From a bacterium (GTDB taxonomy: Bacteria; Cyanobacteriota; Sericytochromatia; S15B-MN24; VGJW01): DNA of 64,000 nt. Location: the NCBI GenBank assembly GCA_021781555.1, contig JAJXWQ010000007.1:529-64528 (forward strand), given 5' to 3'. A model generated the notes under the pieces. It was given only the letters and a program-made list of their open reading frames with translations, was not told where the DNA came from and did no database searches. Every line of letters begins with the position of its first letter. Position 1 is the stretch's first letter. Position numbers and translations under genes: made by a program. Shown here one piece after another: positions 6,194-52,726 of the stretch.

Positions 6194-6199
6194 GGTAGC

Positions 6200-10525: not shown

Positions 10526-12154
10526 ATGGACGCGGCCGGAGAACGAAACGCGATTCGTTCACTCAGGATATTTTCGGATGTCGCCGCTTCGATCGCGCTG
10601 ATCTGTGGCGGCCTCGAGATCGCCGCCTGGATCCTGGACCTCCGGGGCCTCGAAGCCTCGGCCATGGCGCCCCTGGCGCAGGGCCCCGAGGCCGCCACAG
10701 GCCTGCTCCTCGTGGGAGCCGCCCTCATCGTGGCGGGCAGGAACTTCCCGGGCGCCCGGATCGCCTGGCAGCTTTTGGCACTGATGGCGATGACCTTCGG
10801 CACCGCGCTGTCCGTCCGCGGGCTCGGAAGGATCGACGTCGGGCTGGGGCACTTGTTCTCTCCCCATGCGGCCGCCGCGAACTTCACCTCGGCCCGGATG
10901 GCCCTGCCCACGGCCCTGGTGATCACGCTCCTCGGACTGGCCCTGCTGCTCAAGGGCCGGTCGCTGAGCCGAGCGGGGGACGCCCTGGGCACCATGGCCT
11001 TCCTGTTCCTTTACTTCGGGTTCCTCCACCAGGTCCTCAGGATCGAGTTCATGCGGGTGGAACCGCCGTTCAGGCAGGTGCCGCAGGCCTGGCTCCTCTG
11101 GATGCTGCTGAGCCTGGGGGTCACGGCGGTCCGATCGTCGCAATGGCTGGTCGACACCGCCCTGGGGCGAACGCTGACTGGCCTGATGGGGCGCCGCTTC
11201 CTGGCCGCCGTCCTCGTCACCCCGGCACTGTTGGGTTTGCTGTGGATCGTGGCGGTCAGGGCCAACGGCGTGACGCCGATCGAGCGGCTCATGACGGTCG
11301 CCCTCGGCTTCACCGCGCTCATCGTCGGCGTGATCGCCCTTGATGCCCGCCGCCTCGAACAGATCGAGACCGAGCGCGGTCGAGCCGAGGAAGCCTTGGC
11401 CATGAGCCAGGCCGAACTCAAGAAGGCAGCCGAGCTGGCCCAGCTCAAGGATTCCTTCCTCTCGACGGTATCCCACGAGATGCGCACTCCACTCTCGCTC
11501 ATCATGGGCTACGCCGAGCTTCTCGAGGACGTCTATCCCGGCGAAGAGCTCATCGCCGGGATTCAAGAAGGCACCCGAAGGCTCGCCGAGCACATCGAGC
11601 GGATCGTCGAGTACTCCGCCTTGCTCGGCGGTACCTTGCCCCTCTACCAGACGCCAGTAGACATGGCCGAACTGGCCCGCAACGTCGCCGAGGTCGAGCG
11701 GGCGCGGTTCAAGGGCAAGGATCTGACACTCACCGTCGAGGTGAGCGTCAAAACCCCCATCGTGCAGGGAGACTCGCGCCGGCTGACCGAGGTGCTCAAG
11801 GAGCTCCTCGACAACGCGATCAAGGTCACACCGCCCGGGCGCAAGGCCGGGATCCGGGTCGGACCCGAGGGCGACAAGCTGCGAATCGACGTCTGGGACA
11901 GCGGGCCCGGGATCGGCGAGTCCGAGATCGCGCGTCTCTGGGAGGCCTTCGGGCAGCTCGAGGCGGGAGATTCCGCCCGGCGCGGCGGCCTGGGGCTCGG
12001 GCTCCCGATCTCCAGAAAGCTGATCGAACTCCACGGCGGCACGCTCGCCGTGGCGAGCCAGCCCGGCGAGGGGAGCACGTTCACGGTGCTGCTGCCGGCC
12101 TTCGGAACCGAGACTACGGACGCCGGTCCGGAACTCCCGGGTTCGCCTACGTGA
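10526..12154 (+). CDS. membrane sensor histidine kinase
   Basis: Several TM helices, HisKA H-box (SHEMRTPLSLIMGYAELL) and HATPase_c G-boxes (DSGPGIGE, GLGLGLPISRKL). Confidence 0.85.
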   Translation: MDAAGERNAIRSLRIFSDVAASIALICGGLEIAAWILDLRGLEASAMAPLAQGPEAATGLLLVGAALIVAGRNFPGARIAWQLLALMAMTFGTALSVRGLGRIDVGLGHLFSPHAAAANFTSARMALPTALVITLLGLALLLKGRSLSRAGDALGTMAFLFLYFGFLHQVLRIEFMRVEPPFRQVPQAWLLWMLLSLGVTAVRSSQWLVDTALGRTLTGLMGRRFLAAVLVTPALLGLLWIVAVRANGVTPIERLMTVALGFTALIVGVIALDARRLEQIETERGRAEEALAMSQAELKKAAELAQLKDSFLSTVSHEMRTPLSLIMGYAELLEDVYPGEELIAGIQEGTRRLAEHIERIVEYSALLGGTLPLYQTPVDMAELARNVAEVERARFKGKDLTLTVEVSVKTPIVQGDSRRLTEVLKELLDNAIKVTPPGRKAGIRVGPEGDKLRIDVWDSGPGIGESEIARLWEAFGQLEAGDSARRGGLGLGLPISRKLIELHGGTLAVASQPGEGSTFTVLLPAFGTETTDAGPELPGSPT

Positions 12155-20567: not shown

Positions 20568-20648
20568 GCGGCACGCCCCCCGGCCGGCCCGTAGCTTTTG
20601 CAGCGGGAACGAGTTCCTCTGCGCTGCGCAACCGGGACCCGTTTGGCA

Positions 20649-21419
20649 TCAGGACGGCAACAGCCGTTTGACCATTCCGTGCAGCGCCTCGTACTGCCTC
20701 AGCCCATCCTCGAGATGCTGCATGGCCCGGTCGGGTCGGAAGGCCTGGTTGGCCGAGAACAGCGGATCCGTCGCTGGATAACCGCCCTCGGTCCGACGCA
20801 TGCTGTAGACGTAGCGGCCGTGGTGCACGAGATGCAGATCGAAATCGCAATAGGTCTCGATCCCGCGGGACCTTGCCCGCTCCCCGAACGCCCAATCCTC
20901 CCCGAGGTGGATGGGCGTGCCCTCCGAGTCCTTGATGAGAATCGGGTTGAAAAATCCCATGTAAGTCTTCAAGAACTCGATGTAACGAAGGGACTCATCG
21001 GCGATATTCTCGAAAACCTCGCGCCGGATCAGCAAGAAACCGGTCGGCAGGTACCGAACCTTGGCCAGTCCGCGGGCCAGTGGCGGCTGATCCTTCTCGG
21101 CTGCGACAAGAAGCTCGAGGGGGAACATCTTGCGTGGATATGTCGCCCCGACGATCGCTTTGTCATGGCGATACAGACGATCGACGCCATCCGGCGGGAA
21201 AGAGAGGTCCGAATCGATCATCATGAGGCTGTCGCAGTCCGACTCTGCAAACAACGCCGCGAGCTTGTTCCGGGCTCGCGAAATCAGCGACTCCCCGGTC
21301 AAGATCTGCACGTCGAAGCGATGCCCCCCCGGATTCCGGCTCAGCATCGCGACGAGGCTCTCCACCGCAGGTACGTGGAAGCCCCCCCCGACGGGCAGAC
21401 CCAGCATGATCCTGGCCAT
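20649..21419 (-). CDS. GT-A fold (family-2-like) glycosyltransferase, paralog A (DxD intact: DSD)
   Basis: ISRARN...MIDSDLSF and GEDWAFGERARSRG motifs. Confidence 0.55.
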   Translation of the reverse strand: MARIMLGLPVGGGFHVPAVESLVAMLSRNPGGHRFDVQILTGESLISRARNKLAALFAESDCDSLMMIDSDLSFPPDGVDRLYRHDKAIVGATYPRKMFPLELLVAAEKDQPPLARGLAKVRYLPTGFLLIRREVFENIADESLRYIEFLKTYMGFFNPILIKDSEGTPIHLGEDWAFGERARSRGIETYCDFDLHLVHHGRYVYSMRRTEGGYPATDPLFSANQAFRPDRAMQHLEDGLRQYEALHGMVKRLLPS

Positions 21420-21421
21420 CG

Positions 21422-22258
21422 TCAGCGCACCCTCCGTTCGAGGTACTCCGCCATCGACCTGGCCGCGGCCTCCTTGAGGCTGACCTCGAGCATCTCCAGT
21501 TGATCCACGAAGGCGGCTACCGGAGGCGGAAGCTCGACGCCAGGGGGCCGCAGCGCGGCGGAGGGAAGCGCCATCAGTCGCTCGACGACCGGAAAGTACT
21601 CGTGGATCGGCACGGCGCCATCGGCAAGCGGATCCACCTGGTAGGCATACGACCCCGCGCGACCGATCGCCAGGTCGAAGTCGCAGGATACGGACAGGCC
21701 GCGATCGCGAGCCCGCTGACAGAAAGCCCGATCCTCACCGAGATGAACGGCCACGCCGTCCGTCACCACGACGGGGTCGAAGAAACCGGCGATCCGGCGC
21801 CCGAAATCCTCGCGGATGATCGCACTGCCGGCCATCGCCTCCAGGGCTTCACGACGGATCAGGATGAAACCAGCTGGAGCGAACTCGACCTGCAGCAGGC
21901 CCGCGAGCGTAGCTGGAGCATCGCCGGAAAGCCGCAGTCCCCTCTCGAAGGCATCCTCCCACGTGGGATAAGGCCCCACGACGATGGGGACCTCGTGCGC
22001 CAGGAGGCGATCGATCGCATCCGGATCGAAGGTCAACCCCGACTCGAGGATCATCAAGCCGGCGGCATCGGACCTGAGCAAGGCGTCGGCGAGAAAGTCG
22101 CGAGCCCGGCCCGGCGAAAGCCCGGGTGGGATCCGCTCGATCTCGAACTCATGTTTACCGGGATTGGCCTGGATGGCGGCGAGCAGGCTCGCCACCGTGC
22201 CGGGAAAGAGCGTGGCGTCCCCGCCGGACGCAAGAAGACCCAACAAGATTCGTGCCAC
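21422..22258 (-). CDS. GT-A fold glycosyltransferase paralog B (DxD replaced by ESG)
   Basis: Collinear with paralog A (GEDRAFCQRARDRG retained) but the DxD position reads LMILESGLTF. 3-bp gap to paralog A. Confidence 0.55.
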   Translation of the reverse strand: MARILLGLLASGGDATLFPGTVASLLAAIQANPGKHEFEIERIPPGLSPGRARDFLADALLRSDAAGLMILESGLTFDPDAIDRLLAHEVPIVVGPYPTWEDAFERGLRLSGDAPATLAGLLQVEFAPAGFILIRREALEAMAGSAIIREDFGRRIAGFFDPVVVTDGVAVHLGEDRAFCQRARDRGLSVSCDFDLAIGRAGSYAYQVDPLADGAVPIHEYFPVVERLMALPSAALRPPGVELPPPVAAFVDQLEMLEVSLKEAAARSMAEYLERRVR

Positions 22259-22423
22259 GCCCCATGCTATACCTGTTTCGCTCCGAACGGGCCCCTGTGC
22301 GCGTCCGCCTCGCCGCGCCAGCGGGCCCGCGCGATGAAGGCCGCGGCGACGAAGCGCTGCGGCCTTTGCGGTGATTCGGGAGCTTTCCCGAAAGGTGGAC
22401 CGATCGCTCGGACCGGTCGAAAC

Positions 22424-28647: not shown

Positions 28648-29475
28648 ATGCGGATCCTCATCATCGAATCCGATGCCCCGTGCGCCGAAGCGCTTGCCTT
28701 CACCCTCACGAACGCCGGCTACGAGGTCGAGCATGCCCTGACCGGGCGACAAGGCCTCCAGGTCATCGCGGACCAGGGGCCTCCCGACGGCGTGCTGGTG
28801 GGCCACCCCCTGGCCGATCAATCGGGCCTCGACGTCTGCCGCGCCATCCACGCGGAGAGCGATGCCGGACTCATCCTCGTGAGTTCTTGCACCCGCGAAG
28901 AGACGATACTCCGGGCCTTTGCAGCCGGTGTCGACGATGCCGTCGTGAAGCCCGTCCGCGTCGCGGAATTGACTGCGCGGCTCGGAGCCGTGCTGCGGCG
29001 CCGGCAGCTCAAGGGGGCCGGTGCCCCCTGCGGGATCGTGGAGCGCGGCCCGTTCCGGCTCAATTCCAATCGACTCGAGGCCACGGTTACCGGACGCCTT
29101 GCTCCGGTGCGCCTGACGCCCCTCGAGGCCAAGCTGCTGGGGCTCTTGATGCTCAACACCAACCAGGTGATGACAAAGGCGCGTCTCCAGGAGCTGATCT
29201 GGGGATACCAGAACGACTCGAGCGGCGATCTGCTCAAGACCCACGTTCGACACCTGCGCGTGAAGCTCGAGGCCACGCCATCGTCGCCCCGGTTCATCCA
29301 GACGATCAACGGCGTGGGCTATACCTTCGTGAGCCCGCGCCCCGCCGAGAGGGTCGAACTCGATGCGCCGGCGACGCCCGGGACCCTCCTGGCCGGCGTG
29401 CCAGCCGCGGCGGCACCAGGCCACCTGTCCGGCCTGCAGTCAGAGCCTCGCTCCCCGCTTCCGGCACCGGCTTGA
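28648..29475 (+). CDS. OmpR-family response regulator with Asp-less receiver (atypical)
   Basis: Receiver plus wHTH (LTPLEAKLLGLL...VGYTFV). The phospho-acceptor position aligns to Gly (PDGVLVGHPLAD vs canonical PDLVLLDLMLP). No adjacent kinase. Confidence 0.7.
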   Translation: MRILIIESDAPCAEALAFTLTNAGYEVEHALTGRQGLQVIADQGPPDGVLVGHPLADQSGLDVCRAIHAESDAGLILVSSCTREETILRAFAAGVDDAVVKPVRVAELTARLGAVLRRRQLKGAGAPCGIVERGPFRLNSNRLEATVTGRLAPVRLTPLEAKLLGLLMLNTNQVMTKARLQELIWGYQNDSSGDLLKTHVRHLRVKLEATPSSPRFIQTINGVGYTFVSPRPAERVELDAPATPGTLLAGVPAAAAPGHLSGLQSEPRSPLPAPA

Positions 29476-29581
29476 TCGGGCCAACCGGTCCGCAGGGCCC
29501 GCCCGGCCAGGGAAGCGCGAGGCCGCAGCGGGCAGGGTATTTGACCGTCGTTCAGCGCCGTGATAACGTGTTCCTGTTCGC

Positions 29582-29655
<74 letters not shown>

Positions 29656-29727
29656 CTCCGCCAGGGGCCTCGAGAGATCGAGGCCCCTGCGCTCGTCTGG
29701 GCGGGCAGGCGTGGGCCCGTGCGGCTC

Positions 29728-29892
29728 CTACGGCTTCAGCGTGGGGCCCGAGCCGGCCTGCGGGTTCACCAGCCCGTCGAGGACCGAAACCGTGGCCCCG
29801 ACGAAGATCGCCGAGGCAGCAACGCTTACGAACAGGAGAATGACGGGAACGAGCCACCCGATGATGCTGGTCGCGATGAAGAGGGCGAGCAT
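29728..29892 (-). CDS. small hydrophobic membrane protein (54 aa), absent from the ORF track
   Basis: GGAGGGAAAT then ATG. MLALFIATSIIGWLVPVILLFVSVAASAIFVGATVSVLDGLVNPQAGSGPTLKP: a single or double TM helix. Confidence 0.4.
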   Translation of the reverse strand: MLALFIATSIIGWLVPVILLFVSVAASAIFVGATVSVLDGLVNPQAGSGPTLKP

Positions 29893-29917
29893 CTGGATTT
29901 CCCTCCTTCACTTCGAT

Positions 29918-30125
29918 CTAGAGTGCTCCCGGTTTGAACAGGATCGAGCCCGATGAGTCAAACGGGGCCCGGTTGCGCAGCGAAGCGACCGCGCAGAGGG
30001 ACCCGTTCGAGCTCAACAAGGCCTAGGGTTCCCGGTTTGAACAGGATCGAGCCCGATGAGTCAAACGGGGCCCGGTTGCGCAGCGAAGCGACCGCGCAGA
30101 GGGACCCGTTCGAGCTCAACAAGGC
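29918..30125 (+). repeat. tandem dimer of a CTAG-bounded ~105-bp MITE/REP-like element
   Basis: Unit ctagagtgctcccggtttgaac..gcccgatgagtcaaacggggcccggttgcgcagcgaagcgaccgcgcagagggacccgttc.. occurs twice head-to-tail. Confidence 0.85.
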
Positions 30126-30241
30126 ATAACACCCGGCACTCGCGGCGACCACGGGAACCCGGACATGGTTTCCCGGCGCCAGCCGGGATCCTGTCGCCAG
30201 GTCGGCTCCCCGGGGTACACCAGGCCGGGGCGGATGCCCAG

Positions 30242-31138
30242 CTACCGGGACGATTCCATATCGAGGCTGATGTCCAGGAACCCCGCCAGGCGCGTGATGG
30301 CCGACGTGGAGAGGTAGTCGACTCCCGTACGGGCGATGGCCCCGGCTCGCTCGAGCGTGATCCCGCCCGAGGCCTCCACCGGAATGCGTCCGGCCACCAG
30401 TGCGACCGCTTGCTCGATCTCCTCGTTCGTCATGTTGTCGAGGAGGATGTGGTCGGCTCCGGCGGCCAGGGCTTCCTGCACCTGGAAAAGGGTGTCGGCC
30501 TCCACCAAGACCTTGGCCGTGACCGGGATACCAAGCCTGGCGCGCCTCACGGCCTCGGCGATGGATCCCGCCAGCGCGATGTGGTTGTCCTTGATCATGA
30601 CGGCGTCCGAAAGGCCAAAGCGGTGGTTGCGACCGCCCCCTGTCCGCACCGCGTACCGCTCGAGGATGCGCAAACCCGGCGTGGTCTTGCGCGTGTCCAG
30701 AAGCCGGGTCTTGCTCCCGGCGAGGCGCTCGACGAATCGGTGGCTCGTCGTGGCCACGGCGCACATCCGCTGCAGGAGGTTGAGGGCGACACGTTCGGCC
30801 ATGAGCATGCCGCGGGCCGGGCCGCTCACCCGCGCCACCACCGCTCCGGCCTCGGCCAGCGCGCCCTCGGGGACGAGCACCTCGGTGGCGATCGCCGGGT
30901 CGGCGAGGTAGAACACCCGCGCCAGGACCCCTGCGCCTGCAATCACCCCGGGCTCACGCAAGGTCACGTTACCGACTGCGCGATCGCTCTCGCCGAGGAC
31001 CAGCTGCGACGTGAGATCCCCGGAGCCGAGATCCTCCCGCAGGGCTGCGGTGAGGATGGGGTCGAGAAGGAGGGGGTGCAGGGCATCGACCGAGACGCCG
31101 CCGGCAGCTGACCTTTCAAGCATTGGCGAAGTATACAC
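30242..31138 (-). CDS. nadC: nicotinate-nucleotide pyrophosphorylase (quinolinate PRTase)
   Basis: Global NadC similarity (TRKTTPGLR, DNHIA, LLDNM). Start may be the second ATG (MLERS). Confidence 0.9.
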   Translation of the reverse strand: MYTSPMLERSAAGGVSVDALHPLLLDPILTAALREDLGSGDLTSQLVLGESDRAVGNVTLREPGVIAGAGVLARVFYLADPAIATEVLVPEGALAEAGAVVARVSGPARGMLMAERVALNLLQRMCAVATTSHRFVERLAGSKTRLLDTRKTTPGLRILERYAVRTGGGRNHRFGLSDAVMIKDNHIALAGSIAEAVRRARLGIPVTAKVLVEADTLFQVQEALAAGADHILLDNMTNEEIEQAVALVAGRIPVEASGGITLERAGAIARTGVDYLSTSAITRLAGFLDISLDMESSR

Positions 31139-31189
31139 TGCGTCAGGCGCCCAGTGTCGTCAGCAACGGTTGGTGCTACGATCGCTGCG

Positions 31190-31396
31190 ATGACCGTCGA
31201 CAAGCTTCTGGAATTCGAGCCCATCGAGTGCCAGCGCCTGGACAAGGAGAACGCGGCCTGGGCGCTCCAGTACGTCGCGCGCTGGCGCCAGCGCCTGGAG
31301 ACCGACGGCGACGACCCCGACCTGGTTGCTTACGGCAACCGCGAGATCGCCGCCTACGAGGAGCTGCTGGCCCGGTTCGGCCAGGCTCCAAGCTGA
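31190..31396 (+). CDS. small acidic hypothetical protein
   Basis: ORF-track frame 31154..31396; I chose the internal ATG (MTVDKLL). No homology recognised. May be the front half of a frameshifted gene continuing in 31326..31913. Confidence 0.25.
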   Translation: MTVDKLLEFEPIECQRLDKENAAWALQYVARWRQRLETDGDDPDLVAYGNREIAAYEELLARFGQAPS

Positions 31397-31931
31397 GGAC
31401 GGCGAGGTGCCTGATTGGTCCGTCCCCCTGTTGCTAGCGGCCACGGTCGCGCTGGAAGGTGCCCTGGCCTCCCCTGCCCTCGCGCTGGTGCAGTACGGCG
31501 AGCATGCAGCCAGCCAGCCAGCCCTCCTCGCCGATCGCCTGATCGTGGCTTCCGGGGACATCCTGCACGCCAGGTCCTTCGACCAGTGCCTCGGCGGCCG
31601 TCCGACGCACCTGATGCCAGACATCCCGCGCTGGACGCGCCAGGCGCTCGCCGCGGCAGACCAGGAGCTCTATGCCGCGGGTTTCGACACCATCGATCCC
31701 GCCGAGCAGGGCAAGATAGCCGACCTCCGCTCTTGCATCCACGTCCTCTCTGCCCGCCTTGACAGGCGTCGCCGAGGTCTCGGCCGTGCCCTCCTACGCC
31801 TGTATCTGGCAGTCCACGCCATGGCATCCGAGGTCGCGGGCAGGGTCGCCAACCGGGTCGAGTCGAGCGCGCCCTTGACCCGACCGCCCCTCGGAGCCAC
31901 ACCCGCTACCTGACGAGCCGCAGCCCGTCTC

Positions 31932-33191
31932 CTATTCCAGGAACTCGGCGAAGACCCCGTTGGCCACGGGGAGGGCCGCAGGAGTCAAGCGCAGGGAATC
32001 CCCGCGCAGCTCGAGCATGCCCAGCTCCACCATCCTCGAGATGGCCGTCCCGAACACCTCGTCCAGCTCTTTGCCGAAGCGCCGCCGGAACGCGGCGAAG
32101 GACACTCCTTCCTGGACCAGCCGCAAGCCCATCAAGACCGCGTCTTCCATCGCCTCTCGAATCGGCTGTGGCCGCGCGGGAATGGCGGGAAGAGGCTGGT
32201 CGAGGTACCCATCGATCGTCCGGTCGTGCGCGAAGCGACGCCGGGCGAGGTACGAATGCGCTCCGGAGCCAAACCCGAGATAGGGCCGCCCCAGCCAGTA
32301 GATGCGGTTGTGGGCCGATTCGTGCCCCGGGCGTGCCCAGCTCGAGATCTCGTAGCGCCGATATCCAGCCTCCGCCATCTTCGCGACCAGGAGGTCGAGC
32401 ATCTGGCGCTCGGCATCCTCGCCGGGAAGCTGCAACAGGCCACGCTCGGCACGGACACCGAAAGCGGTGCCGGGCTCGACCTGCAGGCCATAAACCGAGA
32501 AATGCTCGGGTCCCAGGGCAAGCGCCCGATCTAGCGTAGCGTCCCATGAGGCCTGGTCCTGCCCGGGCAGGCCGAACATGAGATCCAGGGAGATATCCGT
32601 GAACCCCGCATCCCGAAGCTCGCCGACGGTGCGCGACACATCCACCACGCCGTGATCCCGGCCGAGAATTCCGAGCAGGGTATCGTCGAAGACCTGGGCC
32701 CCCACCGAGACGCGGTTGACGCCGCACTCCCGCGCCATTCGCCAGAGAGCGGTCGAACCCGTCTTCGGGTTGACCTCCAGCGTGACCTCGGCGTCCTTGG
32801 CGAGGCGAAAATGCCGGTGGGCCGCCGACAGAACCCTCTCGAGCAGTCCAGGCTCCAGGAGGGAGGGCGTGCCGCCGCCCAGGTACAGCGTTGCGGCATC
32901 GAGCACGCCACCCCGCGGCATCGCGCAGCCCGAGTAGGACGAGATCTCGCGCTCGAGGGCCGCGACGTAGGCCTCCATCTGGCGCTCGCGACCGGCATGG
33001 CACGCGAAGTCGCAGTAGTGGCACTTGATCCGGCAAAACGGGATGTGGATGTACAGGCCGAGCCCACGCCCTATCGGGCGAGCGACGTCCCCCGCGAGTT
33101 CGTCACGTTCCGACGTCCCGGATATCCTCGAACTTGATGACGTGGACACGCTTCTGGCCCTTTTCCTGGCCCGTAAGATATCCGCCCTCAT
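31932..33191 (-). CDS. hemW: radical-SAM heme chaperone HemW (HemN-like)
   Basis: LYIHIPFCRIKCHYCDF radical-SAM motif and the HemN C-domain. The only in-frame start gives a 45-aa leader and overlaps the upstream small ORF. Start uncertain. Confidence 0.8.
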   Translation of the reverse strand: MRADILRARKRARSVSTSSSSRISGTSERDELAGDVARPIGRGLGLYIHIPFCRIKCHYCDFACHAGRERQMEAYVAALEREISSYSGCAMPRGGVLDAATLYLGGGTPSLLEPGLLERVLSAAHRHFRLAKDAEVTLEVNPKTGSTALWRMARECGVNRVSVGAQVFDDTLLGILGRDHGVVDVSRTVGELRDAGFTDISLDLMFGLPGQDQASWDATLDRALALGPEHFSVYGLQVEPGTAFGVRAERGLLQLPGEDAERQMLDLLVAKMAEAGYRRYEISSWARPGHESAHNRIYWLGRPYLGFGSGAHSYLARRRFAHDRTIDGYLDQPLPAIPARPQPIREAMEDAVLMGLRLVQEGVSFAAFRRRFGKELDEVFGTAISRMVELGMLELRGDSLRLTPAALPVANGVFAEFLE

Positions 33192-33345
33192 CCTCCGATA
33201 TCGACTTGACCAGGAAGTCGCGCATCGGCCTGCGGTTGTCGAAGAGCAGCTTGATCGGACGGGTCCCCCCCTTGGACATGTCGTCCACCATCTTAGCGAT
33301 TTCGTCCGGTGTCTTCTTGAGTGCCATCCAAACCTCGCGTGACAT
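33103..33345 (-). CDS. small charged hypothetical protein
   Basis: A coupled start candidate (TAAGATGG at 33291) lies 1 nt after the GNAT stop. The longer frame overlaps both neighbours. Protein-like composition (..GGYLTGQEKGQKRVHVIKFEDIRDV). Confidence 0.4.
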   Translation of the reverse strand: MSREVWMALKKTPDEIAKMVDDMSKGGTRPIKLLFDNRRPMRDFLVKSISEDEGGYLTGQEKGQKRVHVIKFEDIRDVGT

Positions 33346-33871
33346 GCTCGGAAGCCAGCATGCCCATTGCCATGAAATCGTGATGCGTACCGGCGAAGAA
33401 GCGATGGTGTCTCAGCATCCCCTCGTGCTGAAATCCCAGGCGCTCATAGCACCGAACCGCCCGGTCATGGTCCGAGCGGACCAGTAACCGGACCTTGTGG
33501 ACTCCCAGATCCTCGAACAGGTAGGACAAGAGGAGCCCCATGGTCTCTGTACCCAACCCTCGGCCGCGGTCCTCCTCCTGACCCAGGTAGAGTCCAACCT
33601 CGACATTGCGATCCTGGGCATCGAAGGAGCCGTACCAGGCAGTTCCCAGCAAGCGGCCGTCGACGGTGGCACAGACCGCATAGGTACGGCCCTCGTGGGG
33701 CTCGACCCGGGCCAGGATCGCGTCGTACCAGGCCTCGGTCTCGTCGGGCGCGGACAGGTGCCGGCGGGTCCCCAGCAGGGCCGAGAGGGCCGGGTCGTTC
33801 CACCAGGAGTTGAGCGCATCGAGATCCTGCCGCTCGATGGCCCGGAGCATCACCCGCTTTGCCAGTAGCAT
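33293..33871 (-). CDS. GNAT-family N-acetyltransferase (RimJ/RimL-like)
   Basis: GNAT motif A region (VGLYLGQEEDRGRGLGTETMGLLLSYLFEDLGVHKVRLLV). Confidence 0.75.
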   Translation of the reverse strand: MLLAKRVMLRAIERQDLDALNSWWNDPALSALLGTRRHLSAPDETEAWYDAILARVEPHEGRTYAVCATVDGRLLGTAWYGSFDAQDRNVEVGLYLGQEEDRGRGLGTETMGLLLSYLFEDLGVHKVRLLVRSDHDRAVRCYERLGFQHEGMLRHHRFFAGTHHDFMAMGMLASEHVTRGLDGTQEDTGRNR

Positions 33872-34040
33872 TCGCTTGATTATAAGGGTTCAACCGGCGT
33901 ACGATTCCTGGCGGCTTCCTCAGATGGACGGGCCCTGCCAGGCAAGCGCCAGGGGGGCGGATCGTGATCCCGCCCGGCTTCGCGATCCACGCGATCGGGT
34001 CCCGTCCGACGCTATCCCAAGATCGGCCCGGAGCTTCGCA

Positions 34041-34820
34041 ATGCTTCGAATCGGCGAGCCCCACTACCTGAGCACGCTGCCGCTATACCACTCCCTGCGC
34101 AAGCGGCAGGATCCTGACCTGGAGCTGTTTCCAGGCGGTTTGACCGAGCTATCCACCAGGCTTGCCAACAAAGAGCTCGATGCCGGTCCGGTCTCGGTCG
34201 TCGAGTACCTGGCCCACCCGGATCGGTTCAGGATGCTCCCCAACGTGGCGCTCTCGAGCGTCGGCCGCTCCCTGTGCGTCACGCTCTTCAGCCGGCGGCC
34301 AGCCTACGAACTGGCCGATGCGCGGATCGCGGTTCCGGCCACGGCCCCGGGTCCCGTGGCCCTCCTGCGCTGGCTCATGCGCGAGATGTACCGACTCGAA
34401 CCCACGCTCGTGGCCCGGACGGGCGGCCTGCGTGAGAGCCTGGCCGAACACGACGCGGTGCTCCTGTTCCAGGATGCCGCGCTCGAGGCACACGCCGGCA
34501 CGGCCGATCTCTTCCAGATCTGGGATCTGGGCGAGGCCTGGTGGCAGATCACCAATACCCCGTTCATCTACATGCTCTGGGCGGCCCGGAGCGATCTTCT
34601 TGAGGACGACGTTGCGGCGATCACCCTCGCTTTCGACGCAGCCAAGGCCAACGCGCCGGCGCTCGGTGGCGAGATCCTGGCCGAGGCCCAACGCCGCAGC
34701 GCCATCCCCCGTACCCTCTTGGAGGGCTACTTCAACCGCTTCCGGTACGATTTCACGACGTCCCAGCAAGAGGGCCTCGAGGCCTATCGCCAGGCGCTGG
34801 CCACCCTCGTCACGGTCTAG
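34041..34820 (+). CDS. MqnA/MqnD-family menaquinone (futalosine pathway) protein
   Basis: N-terminus MLRIGEPHYLSTLPLYHSL resembles the MqnA start (IGRISYLN.LPLFY). Periplasmic-binding-like fold family. ORF trimmed to the internal ATG. Confidence 0.55.
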   Translation: MLRIGEPHYLSTLPLYHSLRKRQDPDLELFPGGLTELSTRLANKELDAGPVSVVEYLAHPDRFRMLPNVALSSVGRSLCVTLFSRRPAYELADARIAVPATAPGPVALLRWLMREMYRLEPTLVARTGGLRESLAEHDAVLLFQDAALEAHAGTADLFQIWDLGEAWWQITNTPFIYMLWAARSDLLEDDVAAITLAFDAAKANAPALGGEILAEAQRRSAIPRTLLEGYFNRFRYDFTTSQQEGLEAYRQALATLVTV

Positions 34821-34915
34821 AGTGCTCCCGGTTTGAATGGATCGGGCCCGATGAGTCAAACGGGGCCCGGTTGTGCAGCGAAGCGACCGCGCAGAGTGAC
34901 CGTTCAAGCCGAAAG
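34817..34915 (+). repeat. MITE/REP-like element copy (long form, single)
   Basis: Begins at the CTAG that includes the mqnA-like stop. Same family as 29918 and 55927. Confidence 0.85.
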
Positions 34916-34999
34916 GATCGCTCGGGAAGGGCCCCCGTGCCGGCCGAGGCCGGCACGGGAGCCCCTGAGCGGAAGCGCGCACCGCCTCGCGCTTCGAGC

Positions 35000-36271
35000 C
35001 TACGGAAGTCCGATCGAACCGTCGACGGGGACCGGCGGGACCGACGGCGCGCCGTCGAAAGGCAGTGGCGGAACCGCAGCGCCGAGTGATGGCACGAAGC
35101 CGGAATAAGGCAACAGCGATCCAGCTCCGAGGTAGAACGGCGGGAAGAACGGGTGCCACAGACCCGAGGCCAGGGAGTACGGCACCATGTAGACGTAGGA
35201 GTCGTAGAGGTACGGATAGAAGGAGAACGGGAACGTCCCGCCCGCGTATGGCAGCATCCCCCCGAAGATCCCGAAGGGATAGAAGCCACATTCACCGCAC
35301 CAGTTGAGGCCGCCGAAGAACAGCCCGTCGAAGTCGCCCATCGGCGCGAATCCCCCTCCATCGGGCCCCCACCAGTGGCTACCGTGATCCCGGTGCCCGC
35401 GGCCCCGGCCAGGCCCGGCGTGGTCGCCGCCGTTGCCGCCGTGGTTCCACTGCTCGCCGCCGGCGCCATTGCCACCGTTCGCATGGCCGCTGCCACCCGG
35501 GTTCGAGTACCCGCTCCCGGCCGCCCCCCCATTTCCCCCAGGAGCGGGATCCCCATGCCCCCCGCTGGAAGCGCCGCTCGAGCCGCCGGCAGCTGGCATT
35601 CCGGAAGCCAGCGCAGGATCGACCTTGTAGGCCCCGGTCGGACGCCCACGCTGCTCTGGCGTCGAGCGGCCGCTGCCGCCTTCGTGGCTCTGCGGTCCGG
35701 TATACGCTCCGCTGCCCCGTCCACCTGGAACCGGCGATCCGCCATTCCAGCGTGACGCCTGCAGGTCCGAAGCGGAAAGATCGGAGCTCGTGACGCCTGA
35801 CGACAACGAGGACACGCTATACCCGGGCCCACCCGGGGACTCGCCGTCCGCCGTCCCCCCGGAGGACGGGAACTGCACCGCCGAAGCCGGGACCTGCAGG
35901 AGCTCCGTGCTGGCCTGCTCGGGTGTGAGCTGGCCGGGCACGAACTGCTGGAGCTGGCCGAGGGTGGGCCTCATCGTATCCGGCGCCTCGCCGGCATCCG
36001 TACGGGCCAAAAGATCGGACAGGCTCGAGATGTGAATGTAACCCTCGGTTGCCAGGGCCTGGGAATTACCCGGAGACGCATTGCCGGAAAGACCGCCAGC
36101 GGCAGGATCCGTGACGGGGCTCGCGCTCATGCCGGGCACGGCCACGGGATCGGCAGGACTCGGGGCATAAGGGTTCAAGGCAGGCACGTCTGGCTTCCAG
36201 GCACTGCAGCCGACGACGCCGGTTGCGACGGCCATCGAGGCCGCCCAAAGAATCTTCCACCGGATCAGCAT
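35000..36271 (-). CDS. Gly-rich secreted lipoprotein with an aromatic/Pro-rich C-terminal domain
   Basis: ATG preceded by CAGGAGGTG. Lipobox-like ATGVVGC|S. Long G/S/N/H-rich tracts then an F/Y/P-rich C-terminus (FGGLNWCGECGFYPFGIFGG...). Confidence 0.45.
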   Translation of the reverse strand: MLIRWKILWAASMAVATGVVGCSAWKPDVPALNPYAPSPADPVAVPGMSASPVTDPAAGGLSGNASPGNSQALATEGYIHISSLSDLLARTDAGEAPDTMRPTLGQLQQFVPGQLTPEQASTELLQVPASAVQFPSSGGTADGESPGGPGYSVSSLSSGVTSSDLSASDLQASRWNGGSPVPGGRGSGAYTGPQSHEGGSGRSTPEQRGRPTGAYKVDPALASGMPAAGGSSGASSGGHGDPAPGGNGGAAGSGYSNPGGSGHANGGNGAGGEQWNHGGNGGDHAGPGRGRGHRDHGSHWWGPDGGGFAPMGDFDGLFFGGLNWCGECGFYPFGIFGGMLPYAGGTFPFSFYPYLYDSYVYMVPYSLASGLWHPFFPPFYLGAGSLLPYSGFVPSLGAAVPPLPFDGAPSVPPVPVDGSIGLP

Positions 36272-36675
36272 CCGACACCTCCTGCAGCAGCGCTCGTGAC
36301 GGGCCTCAGAGCGATCCACATGGATCCCGGGGCCAGCGCCGGCCAGACGGACCCCGCCGGCCAGCGCCAAGAGCACGCTGCGACTACCCCACCTGCAGGT
36401 CAGCTTAAGCGAGGCCCTGAACTCGCACAACGCGCGCAGGGCCGCTCGGGGTCCTGCTCTTGGATACCGAGGGTTGCGGCCGGCGCCCGAGGTCCCGAGG
36501 GCCAGGGAGTCCCTGCCGCCAGCCACTCGTTTTCGGCTTGCGACGACCTTTTTTGTTCGCAGCCGGGCAAAGGTCGCCTTTCACCCGTGCGCAGGCCAGG
36601 AAAGCCTTCTCTAACGCCTCGAGCCTACGGTATGATGAAGTTTGAGCAACCGAGGAAAGGGGGCGTGGGCGGACG

Positions 36676-38046
36676 ATGTCGATCGTGCCCTTCACACCCG
36701 GCCCCAAAGGGGAAGCGGTCAAGCATAACGATCGAGGCGTCGCCCTCCACGAGCAGGGGGATCTCGACGGTGCGGTGGCGGCATACCGCGAGGCGGTCGC
36801 GATCGATCCTTCGTACGCCAACGCGCATTTCAACCTGGCACTCGCCCTCCACGACCAGGGCAAGATCGACCAGGCGATCGGGTCGTACCGGGATGCCACG
36901 CGCCTCGACCCCGAGGACCCCGAGGCCCTTCTCAACCTCGGCGTCGCTCTGCAGACCCGGGGCGACATCGAGGAGGCACGCGCATGTTTCAAGGCCTGCG
37001 TCACGCTCGATCCCGACTATGCTTGCGCGCACTGCAAGCTCGGCGCCCTGCTTTACGATACCGGCGACCTGGATCAGGCCTCATGGGAACTCAAGAAGGC
37101 CCTACGCCTCGATCCCCACTGCCCGGACGGCCATCACACCCTCGGGCTCGTCCTGTTCGATCGCGGCAGGGCGGATGCCGCCCAGGGCGAGTTCCGCCGC
37201 GCCATCGACCTCGATCCGTCACACCTGGACGCAACCCGGGATCTCGGTCGGGTCCTCCAGCAGACCGGCCACCTGGACGCCGCGGTCTCGGAATACCGCA
37301 AGGCGCTCCTGCTCGAGCGCGACGACCTGCATGCCCGCGTCGGCCTCGCGTCGGTCCTGACCCAGCGGGGCGATTACAACGGTGCCATCGAGGCCTTCGG
37401 CCAGATCCTCGCCGAGGCTCCTGATTTCGCCCCCGCCCACCTCGGGCTGGGCGAGGTTCACCAGGCCCTGGGCGATCTGCCGGCAGCCATCGCCTGCTTT
37501 CGCCAGGCAACGGCTCACCTGCCCACCTCGGCGGGCGCCTGGCTGGCGCTCGGCGAGGCCCTCCACGCCGTTCACGATACGCGGGCGGCCCTCGCTGCTT
37601 ACGAGACCGGCCGCCGCCTCGCACCCCAAGATCCGGCGGCCCACGAGGGCTGCGGCTGGGCTCTCCTCCAGAACAAGGAGCCCGGCGAGGCGGTTCGCTC
37701 CTTCACAGAAGCCGTCCGGCTGAGTCCAGATTCCGTCGGTGCCCGCTTCGGGCTGGCTTCCGCCCTGGCAGCTCAGGGCGCCGCCGAGGACGCGGTGGCG
37801 GCTTTCGAGGAGGTCATCCGACGCCAGCCGAATCATGCTGCGGCCCACGTCCAGCTGGGCGCCCTGCTGCTGGCGAGAGGGCGTCTCACCGAAGCCGGCC
37901 GAATACTGCAGGCTGCGATCGATCTAGACCCGAGCCTATCCGGCGCCTACCTGCAGCTTGGACTGGCACGTCTGCTGCAAGGCCGCGTGCGCCTGGCCGT
38001 CTCGACCTGGCTGGCGGGCCTGCAGTACCTGAGATCCCGCTCGTAG
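36676..38046 (+). CDS. TPR-repeat protein
   Basis: About 12 canonical 34-aa TPR units (AxxxYxxAxxxdP pattern throughout). Confidence 0.85.
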   Translation: MSIVPFTPGPKGEAVKHNDRGVALHEQGDLDGAVAAYREAVAIDPSYANAHFNLALALHDQGKIDQAIGSYRDATRLDPEDPEALLNLGVALQTRGDIEEARACFKACVTLDPDYACAHCKLGALLYDTGDLDQASWELKKALRLDPHCPDGHHTLGLVLFDRGRADAAQGEFRRAIDLDPSHLDATRDLGRVLQQTGHLDAAVSEYRKALLLERDDLHARVGLASVLTQRGDYNGAIEAFGQILAEAPDFAPAHLGLGEVHQALGDLPAAIACFRQATAHLPTSAGAWLALGEALHAVHDTRAALAAYETGRRLAPQDPAAHEGCGWALLQNKEPGEAVRSFTEAVRLSPDSVGARFGLASALAAQGAAEDAVAAFEEVIRRQPNHAAAHVQLGALLLARGRLTEAGRILQAAIDLDPSLSGAYLQLGLARLLQGRVRLAVSTWLAGLQYLRSRS

Positions 38047-38077
38047 CTGCAAAGCCGCAGGCGAAGGAGTGCGCGGT

Positions 38078-38153
38078 GGCTAGGCCTTTTGCAGTTTGAA
38101 CGGGGCCCGTTTGACTCATCGGGCCCGATCCATTCAAACCGGGAGCACTCTAG
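38078..38153 (-). repeat. MITE/REP-like element, short (76 bp) inverted-orientation form
   Basis: ctaggccttttgcagtttgaacggggcccgtttgactcatcgggcccgatccattcaaaccgggagcactctag. It lacks the internal 32-bp ggttgcgcagcgaagcgaccgcgcagagggac segment. Confidence 0.85.
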
Positions 38154-38893
38154 GCCTTGCGCCGATCGGATCCTTCCATCGACATGACCCACTCGGTGTA
38201 CCTGGGGGTGTCGGTGGGATCGTCCCGCAGCGCCATCCGGAACGTGATGCGATCCTTGATGGGCCGGAAGGACACGACCTCCACGATCTCCTGGCAGTAA
38301 CCCTCGCGGCGGAGATCCTCGACGGCCTTCTGGGGGCTGACCATGACGACCTTGTCGCCCGAGAGCGGATCGAAGGCGACCAGCGTCCCACCCTCGGCAT
38401 CGCCGCGGGGTCCCTCGATGGCGAGCAGCCGGCCATCCGGCGACCAGCCGACGCGCTTCCAGACCAGATCGGGGCCATCCGACGGGACGGCGATCCGCTT
38501 GCCGCTCTTGCGTTCGAACACGGTGAGCGTGTTGGGCGCGCCCTTGATGGAGCTGTCCAGGACACCGACATAGCGGCGATCGGCGCTCATCCGGACTTCC
38601 CCATGCTGCGCGGTGCGCTGGGCCAGGCCCTGGGCGGGCTCGCCCGCCGAGGCCGGCAGGAGATCGGGCACCCAGATGCGCTCGGTCGGGCGCAGAAAAT
38701 TTGGATTCATCGCGGGGTTGCGACGCATGAGCTCAGCCACGGGCACACCCGAAGCTCGGGCGATCGCACCAAGGGTATCGCCCGGTCGCACCAGGTAAGC
38801 GAAGGCCGGACCACGACCGGGGCGGTCGTTGGGAGATGGGCCCGCCGGGATGGGCAGCCTTGCAGGACGCGCAACGCCCGGCTGGCGCAACAT
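38150..38893 (-). CDS. LysM-domain protein
   Basis: LysM (YLVRPGDTLGAIARASGVPVAELMRRNP). ORF trimmed to an internal ATG. C-terminal half possibly beta-propeller-like. No clear signal peptide. Confidence 0.5.
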   Translation of the reverse strand: MLRQPGVARPARLPIPAGPSPNDRPGRGPAFAYLVRPGDTLGAIARASGVPVAELMRRNPAMNPNFLRPTERIWVPDLLPASAGEPAQGLAQRTAQHGEVRMSADRRYVGVLDSSIKGAPNTLTVFERKSGKRIAVPSDGPDLVWKRVGWSPDGRLLAIEGPRGDAEGGTLVAFDPLSGDKVVMVSPQKAVEDLRREGYCQEIVEVVSFRPIKDRITFRMALRDDPTDTPRYTEWVMSMEGSDRRKA

Positions 38894-39097
38894 TGCAGTG
38901 GACACGAGACCTTCCTCCTCCGTGGGCTCGAGGCAACCTTCGCGGCCGTTCGCCTCGCCCGACGAGCCATGACGGCTCTCCAGTTCTATCGTGCTCGGGC
39001 GCCGAAGACTGACGCGCTCGCACGTTAAGCTTGGAGGAAGAAACGCCCCAAAGGGCTTAACCGAGCCTTCCCGCTCCCGGTGCGCTACACTGTCGTC

Positions 39098-39352
39098 ATG
39101 ACCACAGAGAATGGCCTGATGCGCCTGTACCAGTTCGAGTCCTGCCCGTACTGCCACCAGGTGCGGCAGAAGCTAAGCGAGCTCCTGCTCACCTACGTCG
39201 CGATCAACGTTCCGCAGGATCGCTCCAGGCGGCAGGAGGTCATCGCGGTATCCGGACAGCCGACCGTTCCGGTACTGGTCGACGGAGACGTCGTGATCGC
39301 GGACGAGAACGACATCATCGCGCATCTCGAGAAGAAGTACAGCAAGAAATAG
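39098..39352 (+). CDS. glutaredoxin-like protein (CPYC)
   Basis: YQFESCPYCHQVRQKL...GQPTVPVLVDGD thioredoxin-fold pattern. Start ambiguous (39080, 39098 or 39119). Confidence 0.7.
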   Translation: MTTENGLMRLYQFESCPYCHQVRQKLSELLLTYVAINVPQDRSRRQEVIAVSGQPTVPVLVDGDVVIADENDIIAHLEKKYSKK

Positions 39353-39360
39353 GTGGCGGG

Positions 39361-40260
39361 GTGTCGGACAACCCGAGCGTGCGGCTCGACGGCCTGGTCA
39401 AGGCGACGGCGGCCGGCGGACGCATCCGCGCACTGGCCGCCTACACGACCGGCATCGCCGAGACCGCCCGCCAGAACCACCAGACGGCGCCGCTGGCGAC
39501 CGCGGCCCTTGGCAAGGCCCTGACCGGCGGCCTGCTCCTGGCGAATTCGCTGATGAAGGAGGAGGGCCGCCTCACCATCCGCATCGTCGGCGGCGGGCCG
39601 ATTGGCGGGATCATCGTGGATGCGGGCGCGGATGGCTCCGTTCGCGGCTACGTGGGGCGGCCCGATCTCTATCTCTCCCAGGGCGACAAGGATATCGTCG
39701 ACATCGGCCTCGCCGTCGGGCACGAGGGCTTCCTGTACGTGACGCACGACCGCGGAACGGGCCACCCCTACACGGGCGTCGTCCAGCTGGTCAGCGGAGA
39801 GCTCGGCGAGGATTTCACCCATTACCTGGCGACCTCCGAGCAGATCCCTGCCGCGGTTTCGCTGGGCATCTTCATCAACCGGGATGGCACGGTAGCCAGT
39901 GCAGGCGGCTTGCTGGTCCAGCTCCTACCCGATGCCGGCGACGAGATCGCCTGGCGGCTGGAGCAGACCATCAAGGCCCTGCCGGGCTTCTCGGAGCTGA
40001 TGAACCGCTGTCCGGATCCTGCCGACGTGGTGCACCAGGCCCTGGCGGGATTCCAGGTCGATACGATCACCCATCACCAGGTGGGATTCCGGTGCCGCTG
40101 CTCGCAAGAGAAGGTGATGGCGGCGATCGCCAGCCTGGGCGAACAGGAGATCCGCTCGATGATCGACGAGGACGGCCAGGCCGAGGTCCGCTGCCACTTC
40201 TGCGGACACCAGTACCACATCAGCCGCGCCCAGCTCAGCGCGCTCATCGAGGCCAGTTGA
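39361..40260 (+). CDS. hslO: redox-regulated chaperone Hsp33
   Basis: Hsp33 N-domain and the C-terminal Zn centre CRCS...CHFCG. Confidence 0.9.
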   Translation: MSDNPSVRLDGLVKATAAGGRIRALAAYTTGIAETARQNHQTAPLATAALGKALTGGLLLANSLMKEEGRLTIRIVGGGPIGGIIVDAGADGSVRGYVGRPDLYLSQGDKDIVDIGLAVGHEGFLYVTHDRGTGHPYTGVVQLVSGELGEDFTHYLATSEQIPAAVSLGIFINRDGTVASAGGLLVQLLPDAGDEIAWRLEQTIKALPGFSELMNRCPDPADVVHQALAGFQVDTITHHQVGFRCRCSQEKVMAAIASLGEQEIRSMIDEDGQAEVRCHFCGHQYHISRAQLSALIEAS

Positions 40261-40662: not shown

Positions 40663-41400
40663 ATGAAGAACCTACCACACCTTTCGCCCTCCGGCAAGCG
40701 CCCTGTCGAGGTCCTGGTGGTCGGCAACACCCACACCACGCTCACCGCCTTCTCTCCGAACCCGACCCTGGCCAAGGCGGTGCGGACGGACGAACTCGCG
40801 GCCTGCGCCGAGGACCTTCTCCGGGCGCGGCCCGACCCGTCGGCGGACCTGGTGGTCGTGAGCGTGGTCCCGCCCATCGAGCCGACGATCGCCTCGATCT
40901 TTCCCGGCGCCACTTTCCTGGCGGCCGAAGCAGCGCCGATCGATATCGCCTATCTTGATCCCTCGACGCTCGGGCCCGATCGAATCGCCAACGCGCTTGC
41001 CGCCCGAGCCCTGTTCGGGGCGCCGGTCCTGACGGTCGACTGCGGGACCGCGACAACCTTCACCGCGGTGGATTCCGACGGTCGACTCGCGGGAGGGGCG
41101 ATCGCCGTGGGCCTCGGGACCGCCCGCGACGCCCTGGCGGCCAGGGGTGCGCGATTACCTACCGTCGATCTTGCCGTTTTACCTCCCGGCCCCGCCACGG
41201 ACACGCGTTCCGCCCTGCAGATCGGCCTCGTCCACGGCCACGCGGGATTGATCCAGCATCTCTGCAAGTTGCTGGCGCCAGCCACCCCGATCCTGCTCAC
41301 GGGGGGCTGGAGCGCGCTCCTGGCCCCCTTGATCCCGCGCTCGCGGCGCGTGGAGCACCTCACCGCCCTGGGCGGAAAGGTCTACCATGACGCCCGGTGA
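40663..41400 (+). CDS. coaX: type III pantothenate kinase
   Basis: VVGNTHT phosphate-1 motif and DCGTATTFTAVD...GGAIAVGLG (ASKHA fold), as in CoaX. Confidence 0.85.
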   Translation: MKNLPHLSPSGKRPVEVLVVGNTHTTLTAFSPNPTLAKAVRTDELAACAEDLLRARPDPSADLVVVSVVPPIEPTIASIFPGATFLAAEAAPIDIAYLDPSTLGPDRIANALAARALFGAPVLTVDCGTATTFTAVDSDGRLAGGAIAVGLGTARDALAARGARLPTVDLAVLPPGPATDTRSALQIGLVHGHAGLIQHLCKLLAPATPILLTGGWSALLAPLIPRSRRVEHLTALGGKVYHDAR

Positions 41401-41851
41401 CGATGGGATCTCCGCGCTACGCGCCCACCACTTCCTGTGCCTCACGACCTTCGCCGGCAAGGGATATTCGCCGGACTTCGCGGCAAACCTGAGCCGGGTC
41501 TTCGGGGCCGCCCAGCGCGGCGAGCTCTCCCGGCTGCGCGCCACGTCGAAGGCCGATTTGATCTGCGGGGCCTGTCCGCACCTCGAGGATGGCTCGGCCG
41601 CCGACGGCTGTGCCTTCAGCGCGTCCATCGCGGCACGAGATCGCCGGATGCTCCGAGCCCTGGGCTGGCGGGAGAATCAAGAGGTCGACTTCGCTGCGGC
41701 CATGGACATCATCCATGAGCGCCATCGCGAGCTCATGCGTCAGGTTTGCCGTGGCTGCGACTGGGAGGCCCTGTGCGCAGAGGAACGCTTTACGCTCCGT
41801 CCCGCAAAGAGCCCGCCGCGCGAAGGCAAACCCGAACCGGGCCCCGTTTGA
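41387..41851 (+). CDS. DUF1284-family Cys-rich protein
   Basis: HHFLCLTTFAGKGYSPDFAANL with CxxC pairs. Overlaps the coaX end by 14 nt. Confidence 0.55.
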   Translation: MTPGDDGISALRAHHFLCLTTFAGKGYSPDFAANLSRVFGAAQRGELSRLRATSKADLICGACPHLEDGSAADGCAFSASIAARDRRMLRALGWRENQEVDFAAAMDIIHERHRELMRQVCRGCDWEALCAEERFTLRPAKSPPREGKPEPGPV

Positions 41852-41983
41852 CTACGCGGACCCGACCCTTGCCAACAGGGACCACCCGGAAGGCTGCCCG
41901 CTCAAGCCGCGCGAACACGGATCCTTGGCGCGCCGGGCCGCGATTCTGGCAGCCAACCAGCGCGTCTCCTGAGCGGCCGGGCG

Positions 41984-50713: not shown

Positions 50714-52726
<2,013 letters not shown>

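Follow-up and report, generated by a model that had tools for sequence, protein, structure and literature searches.

A family of CTAG-flanked repeats, probably miniature transposable elements, at gene ends of an uncultured relative of the Sericytochromatia

We analyzed a 64,000-nt stretch of a bacterial genome assembly (GenBank GCA_021781555.1, contig JAJXWQ010000007.1, positions 529 to 64,528; hereafter the window) in which a CTAG-bounded repeat of about 104 bp recurs between genes, among others at positions 29918-30129. The repeats form a real and recently active family of transposable elements of the miniature inverted-repeat type (MITEs); we consider it probable that these are non-autonomous MITEs using CTAG, or the TA within it, as target in an uncultured bacterium related to the Sericytochromatia. 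The assignment is based on a site that is filled in some assemblies and empty in another, on imperfect terminal inverted repeats, on the lack of coding capacity and on a deletion derivative present at two loci. A first-pass annotation of the window had described the repeats as a mobile, structured, MITE/REP-like family (REP, repetitive extragenic palindromic), and this description is borne out by dispersed copies, by the filled/empty polymorphism and by element-free orthologous sites in relatives.

A 21-nt core of the repeat (GATGAGTCAAACGGGGCCCGG) matched the window seven times with up to three mismatches, compared with no match in 100 dinucleotide-preserving shuffles. BLAST searches together with an nhmmer profile located nine element loci in the window. 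The first-pass annotation had counted six loci (eight units); all of the units it listed are at the places given, and three further loci were added here. Copies outside the window were reached through a protein-database search whose query was the concatenation of the element's six frames, in which three open reading frames (ORFs; P0001-P0003) matched, each running into an element copy, and in which no transposase was found among the matches. Four copies were located on contig L014, three on L015 (L015/L016) and one on L017, bringing the total to 17 loci in approximately 106 kb on four contigs, window included. These contigs originate from the same samples as the window and have the same G+C content, while the genes flanking the copies are unrelated. 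Because copies occur on separate contigs, the family is not a local duplication, and it is not confined to the window. The density is about one copy per 6-8 kb; when the index copies are left out it is about one per 7.5 kb, which extrapolates to several hundred copies in a genome of a few Mb.

The same copies were recovered independently in ENA, Logan and NCBI assemblies. Assemblies matching the window locus include a contig of about 67 kb (ERZ27236847:k141_1281511), a contig of the metagenome-assembled genome (MAG) GCA_027325145.1 and pieces from three other samples. Short contigs of several other assemblies terminate within the element, as expected of a high-copy repeat. Neither the 5' end of the element nor the whole unit had a match in metagenome (JGI), viral or plasmid collections. 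Searches against Rfam at gathering and at lax thresholds matched no family to the element (the best score in the element region was 12.9 bits against a gathering threshold of 45, E = 8.5), and the only Rfam match in the window was a tRNA-Met.

Movement of the element is recorded at positions 38080-38153, where a short copy (unit C) is polymorphic between assemblies. In contig L005, which is from another sample and is 100% and 99.77% identical to the window in the two flanks of this site, the allele is empty with a single CTAG (...GCGGTGG-CTAG-GCCTTGCG...), and both adjacent genes are intact without the copy. The filled allele (...GCGGTGG-CTAG-(70 bp)-CTAG-GCCTTGCG...) was found in the window and in contigs L004, L006, L007 and L008. 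This precise filled/empty site shows a target-site duplication, with a length of 2, 3 or 4 bp. Length variation was also observed at two other loci. The tandem dimer at 29918-30129 (the A dimer) is a monomer in five other assemblies (L004, L011, L012, L025 and L026), reflecting either a strain-specific or an assembly difference, and the 44-bp internal repeat of a copy at 52723-52873 (unit E) has one copy fewer in L009 and L010. Relative to every retrieved public assembly, the window is thus longer by a 103-bp unit at the first of these loci and by a 44-bp repeat (52729-52836) at the second, and it therefore derives from a strain or assembly other than the contigs on record.

The anatomy of the element was read from an alignment of 18 copies and their flanks. 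The unit is about 104 bp long, with approximately 100 bp between two CTAGs, a size range of 74-108 bp and a G+C content of about 65%. Both ends show, in exact register, an outer CTAG(A) and an inner GTTTGAA(Y)GG separated by 9-10 bases that match poorly (end sequences CTAGAGTGCTSCCGGTTTGAA and inverted partner TTCAAACTGCAAAAGGYCTAG). These terminal inverted repeats are imperfect and 21-28 nt long; 17 of 28 positions match when CTAG is included, with GTTTGAA at positions 15-21, and over positions 5-25 of the ends 11 of 21 match (shuffle p = 0.012). The GTTTGAA/TTCAAAC inverted repeats and the internal imperfect palindrome of the first-pass annotation are therefore both present. Two subfamilies differ in their first ~25 nt; a local 5' hairpin, variable in sequence, is present in the second, to which units D and E of the window and the L015 13832-13937 copy belong. 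The right two-thirds are common to both subfamilies and contain a long imperfect hairpin (AACGGG-G-CCC-GGT-TGCGC ... GCGCA-GA-GGG-A-CCCGTT). The two halves of the 104-nt unit are about 60% alike as an inverted doublet. In the short form a 34-bp hairpin apex is deleted between direct repeats GGGRCCCG. This form occurs at two loci, one of them the polymorphic unit C, and the hairpin apex is therefore dispensable for movement. With regard to coding capacity, the six frames hold short open stretches, the sole ATG-initiated peptide is without a Shine-Dalgarno sequence, and the recurrent ORF MSQTGPGCAAKRPRR, which the first-pass annotation had called spurious, recurs as described.

The copies in the window are as follows.

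6195-6299, minus strand: unit D, subfamily 2, diverged; 5' CTAG at 6296-6299; antisense to both flanking genes; degenerate 3' end (CTAC) 1 nt from the FapA TAG stop (6191-6193)
20593-20652, minus strand: fragment G, right arm only, hairpin loop deleted; begins directly after the TGA stop of gene 20649-21419 (minus strand)
22268-22328, minus strand: fragment H, diverged right arm; 3' end GGTATAGC adjoins the ATG starting ORF 21422-22258 (minus strand)
29918-30026, plus strand: unit A1, subfamily 1; CTAG at 29918 and 30023; antisense to both flanking genes
30023-30129, plus strand: unit A2, with 96 internal bases equal to those of A1; alternative 5' end CTAGGGTTCCCGG, which recurs at L014 14399 (minus strand); degenerate 3' end CATAA
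34817-34921, plus strand: unit B; 5' CTAG holds the TAG stop of the mqnA-like gene (34041-34820); degenerate 3' end; convergent intergenic
38080-38153, minus strand: unit C, short form, 74 bp including both CTAGs, without the 34-bp apex of the internal hairpin; 5' CTAG (38150-38153) holds the TAG stop of the LysM gene
41835-41885, minus strand: fragment I, left-arm core, 19/19 nt identical
52723-52873, plus strand: unit E, subfamily 2, internal 44-bp tandem duplication x2.5; 5' CTAG holds the GyrB TAG stop; an N6_N4 DNA methyltransferase gene on the minus strand has its TAG stop (52870-52872) in the 3' CTAA
55927-56034, plus strand: unit F1; 5' CTAG holds the TAG stop of the SPOR-domain gene (55304-55930)
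56031-56138, plus strand: unit F2, head-to-tail with F1 and sharing the CTAG at 56031; 1 nt different from F1, whose private variant GCTGCC it also has
56135-56206, plus strand: possible decayed third unit, 68 bp between CTAGs, starting CTAGAGCGGTT as in subfamily 2; the assignment, from direct reading, is uncertain

The A dimer repeats with a period of 103 at 29927-30125 (100% identical over 199 bp) and the F dimer with a period of 104 at 55927-56140 (99% identical), in agreement with the tandem dimers noted earlier at 29918 and 55927. The single copy at 34817 and the diverged copy placed near 6200 were likewise found again. Two lengths needed correction: the short form located at 38078 is present with a loss of 34 bp, not 32 bp, and the variant located at 52727 is present from 52723 with a 44-bp unit repeated 2.5 times in place of a 47-bp duplication. 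At the SPOR stop codon, the stretch following the F dimer could represent a third insertion, now decayed. On the strand opposite to the element, fragment I supplies the final codons and the TGA stop of a DUF1284 gene (41387-41851), and the sequence suggests that the C-terminus of this gene was remodelled by an old element insertion.

The target of the element is rare in the window. CTAG was observed 28 times in 64 kb, where 196 occurrences would be expected on base composition and 57 under a second-order Markov model, and 10 of the 28 are element termini. Among the 18 unoccupied CTAGs, five are stop codons of called genes and about four lie within coding sequence. In seven copies the 5' (C/T/G)TAG of the element is the TAG stop of the upstream gene, the genes concerned being the mqnA-like, LysM, gyrB and SPOR genes in the window and, on L014/L015, an N6 methyltransferase gene, a MoCF gene and cheD. 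For two copies, a convergent opposite-strand gene has its TAG in the 3' CTA(G/A). Unit E fills the interval from the gyrB stop to the methyltransferase stop exactly, and the copy at L015 13832-13937 begins at the cheD stop and leaves 3 nt to the start codon that follows. Four TAG-sharing genes had been named in the first-pass annotation; the mqnA-like, SPOR and LysM genes hold, while the TAG of FapA is next to an antisense copy's degenerate 3' end, a different arrangement, and the fourth gene is gyrB. The accompanying statement that the elements always abut stop codons fails at the very locus that was flagged, as the A dimer lies upstream of a 54-aa membrane-protein gene, with 25 nt between its near end and that gene's start codon (29892, minus strand), and 113 nt separate its far end from the stop of nadC.

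Insertion into a C followed by a TAG stop leaves the stop codon and the reading frame unharmed, because CTAG is palindromic, contains TAG on both strands and is regenerated on both sides, and the simplest reason for finding the surviving copies at gene ends is that insertion there leaves the stop intact. The enrichment at stops relative to unoccupied non-coding CTAGs is marginal (9/12 versus 5/14, p = 0.06), as is the preference for the upstream gene's sense orientation (about 11 of 14 copies, p = 0.057). We conclude that the stop-codon link is real and owed mainly to the choice of CTAG as target and to regeneration of the stop, not necessarily to a function. No directly matching precedent was found in the literature on MITEs, CTAG and stop codons.

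Several features of the surrounding sequence were noted alongside these copies. To the left of the A dimer, the tRNA-Met gene (29582-29656, plus strand) is followed by the hydrophobic 54-aa ORF (29728-29892, minus strand) with a strong GGAGG ribosome-binding site, whose upstream region the A dimer occupies. The N6_N4 DNA methyltransferase gene (PF01555; 52870-53856, minus strand) is convergent to gyrB, and no restriction partner was evident in the gene table. TAG is the stop of about 40% of the high-GC3 ORFs in the window, which looks high for a genome with 67% G+C. The cyanobacterial HIP1 octamer GCGATCGC occurs 19 times in the window, compared to about 2.5 expected from base composition.

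In the mechanism we propose, a DDE transposase supplied in trans would bind the inverted ends and insert the element into a CTAG target, or more loosely a YTAR one, at its TA, which would thereby be duplicated; the terminal G...C of the element would rebuild CTAG at either side. With CTAG depleted, and with a large share of the tolerated CTAGs consisting of C plus a TAG stop, surviving copies would gather at gene ends, where they may sometimes bridge stop to stop or stop to next start. Tandem dimers could arise from re-insertion into a flanking CTAG or from local duplication, and could collapse by recombination.

The class of transposase, the length of the duplication and any effect on transcripts are matters we infer. 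IS630 prefers the TA in 5'-CTAG-3', according to the title of Tenzen and Ohtsubo (1991) as cited in PMC2170065. The flanking tetranucleotides are identical at units C and F and differ at six older copies (TTAG/CTAT, TTAG/ATAG, GTAG/ATAG, CTAG/CTAA, CTAG/CTAC and CTAG/ATAA), a difference that mutational decay could explain. TA is the sole dinucleotide common to both flanks of nearly every older copy, the exception being one mutated 5' flank, CCAG (L014 10220-10326), and the inner G...C changes little compared with the variable outer flank bases. From these sequences, a TA duplication within CTAG/YTAR, as reported for IS630 and for MITEs ascribed to its family such as RUP (PMC2229807), appears favoured over a 4-bp duplication, as in IS5. 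Since the element has its own G...C ends, 2-bp and 4-bp duplications look alike at CTAG sites, and the constancy of the 5' G is confounded by selection on the stop codon; a 4-bp CTAG/YTAA duplication in the style of the IS5 family is possible.

A number of observations weigh against reading the family as CTAG-targeted MITEs. The outer 10 nt of the inverted repeats are poorly matched, and no transposase gene was found in the window or the other contigs (~105 kb), nor any partner with matching ends. All of the data are metagenome assemblies. The filled allele of unit C repeats 9 bp (CTAGGCCTT), so that the empty allele could be a direct-repeat deletion instead of the ancestral site. Private variants are common to both units of each dimer, which points to local duplication and not to independent insertions. 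Finally, the bias towards the sense orientation is not predicted by a palindromic target alone or by a simple selfish-element model.

This last observation would be accommodated if the elements were selected cis-acting RNA modules of 3' untranslated regions (UTRs), placed by a function such as exonuclease protection, Rho-independent-like pausing or ribosome stalling, an explanation that we regard as quite improbable. The predominance of sense copies agrees with it, as do unit E and the copy at L015 13832-13937, which fill their spacers exactly (stop to stop and stop to next start, respectively), and effects on mRNA stability are known for ERIC and REP elements (PMC2229807). Single units fold somewhat better than shuffled sequences (z from -1.1 to -4.1). 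Canonical terminators are few in the region (one found versus 4.8 expected in 10.5 kb of the window), and a syntenic relative, contig L029, has a classical bidirectional terminator at the place of unit E. However, no compensatory covariation was detected in the alignment of copies (term +1.08), diverged copies lose pairs, and the apical stem of the internal hairpin forms better on the antisense strand (about 8 pairs, G-U included, versus 5 in sense). Several copies are antisense to, or upstream of the start codons of, their neighbors (A, D and L014 10222), the orientation and stop-enrichment statistics are marginal at p about 0.06, and the sister strain represented by L005 lacks a copy with its two genes intact. 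The absence of covariation, the better antisense stem and the dispensability of one copy lead us to doubt strong selection on the RNA.

The first-pass annotation had also considered the elements likely 3'-end stabilisers or terminators. The second of these finds no support: no U-tract and no terminator-like score was found for the elements in 29000-39500, the 3' ends read ...CAAACTGCAAAAGGYCTAG, and unit C is dispensable in L005. An intrinsic terminator role is thus not supported, and this candidate was rejected for the missing U-tract. A role as 3'-end stabiliser or translation modulator is possible on the analogy of REP, ERIC and Correia elements. No promoter-like site or integration host factor (IHF) site was found in the element. 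Among other candidates, a structured non-coding RNA gene was rejected for want of covariation; attC sites were rejected because GTTTGAA/TTCAAAC do not fit GTTRRRY/RYYYAAC and the neighboring genes are of the housekeeping kind and point in mixed directions; and CRISPR was rejected on the irregular spacing and the lack of spacers.

A stronger version of a functional role, in which this genome, apparently poor in canonical intrinsic terminators, has domesticated the elements and uses them as its default gene-end module, and in which the targeting of TAG is an evolved "safe-harbour plus function" instead of a side effect of the CTAG preference, seems to us unlikely. Were it correct, sense copies fused to the stop would form or stabilise 3' ends or stall ribosomes, the latter as described for REPs close to stop codons, and the elements would stand in for the hairpin-plus-U terminators kept at these positions by the syntenic relative.

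Transposition of a different kind would be at work if the elements were REP/REPIN- or PATE-like, that is, single-stranded hairpins moved by a Y1 HUH transposase (RAYT or IS200/IS605 TnpA) with CTAG as the cleavage or target tetranucleotide. REP and BIME elements are typically intergenic, stop-proximal and arranged in tandem arrays, and the element shares this placement; stable hairpins lie ~10-20 nt inside both ends of each unit, the outer inverted-repeat bases are weak, and the single CTAG of the empty allele and the pair in the filled one equally fit insertion 3' of CTAG by an element ending in CTAG. We nevertheless judge this very unlikely, as the ends form an in-register inverted repeat and the short form is found at two loci, one of them polymorphic, although most of its right hairpin is missing. 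Orientations are mixed within 64 kb (5 minus, 4 plus) where the nearly monotonic fall of cumulative GC skew suggests a single replichore, and no Y1 transposase gene is present in the ~105 kb examined. The unit, as a 104-nt composite, differs in make-up from REPs and REPINs, and its inverted repeats and mixed orientation set it apart from PATEs. Local segmental duplication or a metagenome assembly artefact, suggested by the A dimer (29918-30129) and the extra 44-bp repeat (52729-52836) that are in the window and not in other assemblies, we consider extremely unlikely; given the copies amid unrelated genes on three other contigs and their independent recovery from three resources, it is refuted for the family as a whole and may apply only to the two window-specific length variants.

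The best named relatives of the GyrB protein, at 72-78% identity, are MAGs labelled "Candidatus Sericytochromatia bacterium" and unclassified "Cyanobacteria bacterium", and from sequence the host is probably a non-photosynthetic member of the Cyanobacteriota. A position among high-GC Firmicutes (Limnochordia) was rejected, since GyrB falls nearest to the Sericytochromatia MAGs. No copy was found in relatives at four loci around mqnA homologues (32-56% identity) or at two around gyrB homologues (74-78%). In contig L018, mqnA ends in an unoccupied ggtCTAG. In the syntenic L029 (GCA_017744355.1), gyrB ends in TAA and is followed by a bidirectional hairpin terminator with A- and T-runs (11969-12021); TAA is also the stop of the SPOR gene, with the following gene 11 nt away. 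These element-free loci indicate that the family is lineage-restricted and that the occupied sites were created or used in this lineage only. Bidirectional intrinsic terminators (35-42-nt inverted repeats with A-/T-runs) were seen in L029 after gyrB and four other genes, and almost none in the window.

MITEs that target CTAG or TA are already well known, and no general principle is changed by this family. Its consequences are practical in part. Public protein sets hold ORFs extended through elements (P0001-P0003), which are likely pseudogene or annotation artefacts; P0003 (L015 10001-10585) is an N-terminal remnant of an isocitrate/isopropylmalate dehydrogenase fused to element-encoded residues. 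The family also breaks the contigs of this organism in several samples, and its filled/empty and monomer/dimer alleles are ready markers for strain typing in an uncultured lineage. Biologically, a palindromic, stop-containing target such as CTAG can channel a selfish element to gene ends with the genes undamaged, and the orientation bias, if it is genome-wide, would make this family a tractable example of MITEs co-opted in 3' UTRs.

Several known systems resemble the element in part. REPs are palindromes of 20-40 nt with a GTAG-type head, usually found as inverted pairs. Like REP/BIME/REPIN elements, the element described here is intergenic, lies a few nt from stops, forms tandem arrays and hairpins and is G+C-rich; in contrast to them, its unit is a composite of 104 nt bounded on either side by CTAG, and no RAYT gene occurs in the sequence examined. 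Correia/NEMIS and ERIC elements are also small, palindromic and intergenic with TA ends, and are co-transcribed with their neighbors, forming long 5'-3' stems that affect mRNA processing or stability (PMC2229807). Those effects have been shown experimentally, whereas the present element is known from sequence and has neither IHF nor promoter-like sites that we could find.

The closer parallels are to MITEs of DDE transposases. MITEPsy1 of Pseudomonas syringae, derived from ISPsy2 of the IS5 family, is 100 nt long with CTAG or YTAA as its insertion site, and has inverted repeats that match inside and mismatch at the outer bases (PMC3189936), as in the family studied here, whose targets (CTAG, TTAG and CTAA) fit YTAR. 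The two share no sequence similarity; MITEPsy1 duplicates 4 nt, whereas the flanking tetranucleotides of the six older copies differ here with TA alone in common, and the ends here lack the GG/GA start typical of IS5-family ends (PMC3189936). RUP, an element of 107 bp attributed to IS630-Spn1 (PMC2229807), is likewise without sequence similarity and, as other elements of its type, A+T-rich, unlike the G+C-rich element here. Relative to the IS630 family as a whole, the match at the outer inverted-repeat bases is poor, the sequences examined yielded no IS630-type partner and the host is Sericytochromatia-related. Nonetheless, the preference of IS630 for TA in CTAG, as that title has it (PMC2170065), is matched by every young copy being CTAG-flanked, and with RUP and other IS630-Tc1-mariner MITEs the family shares a length of ~107 bp, a non-coding sequence, terminal inverted repeats, intergenic location, high copy number and TA-sharing flanks (PMC2229807).

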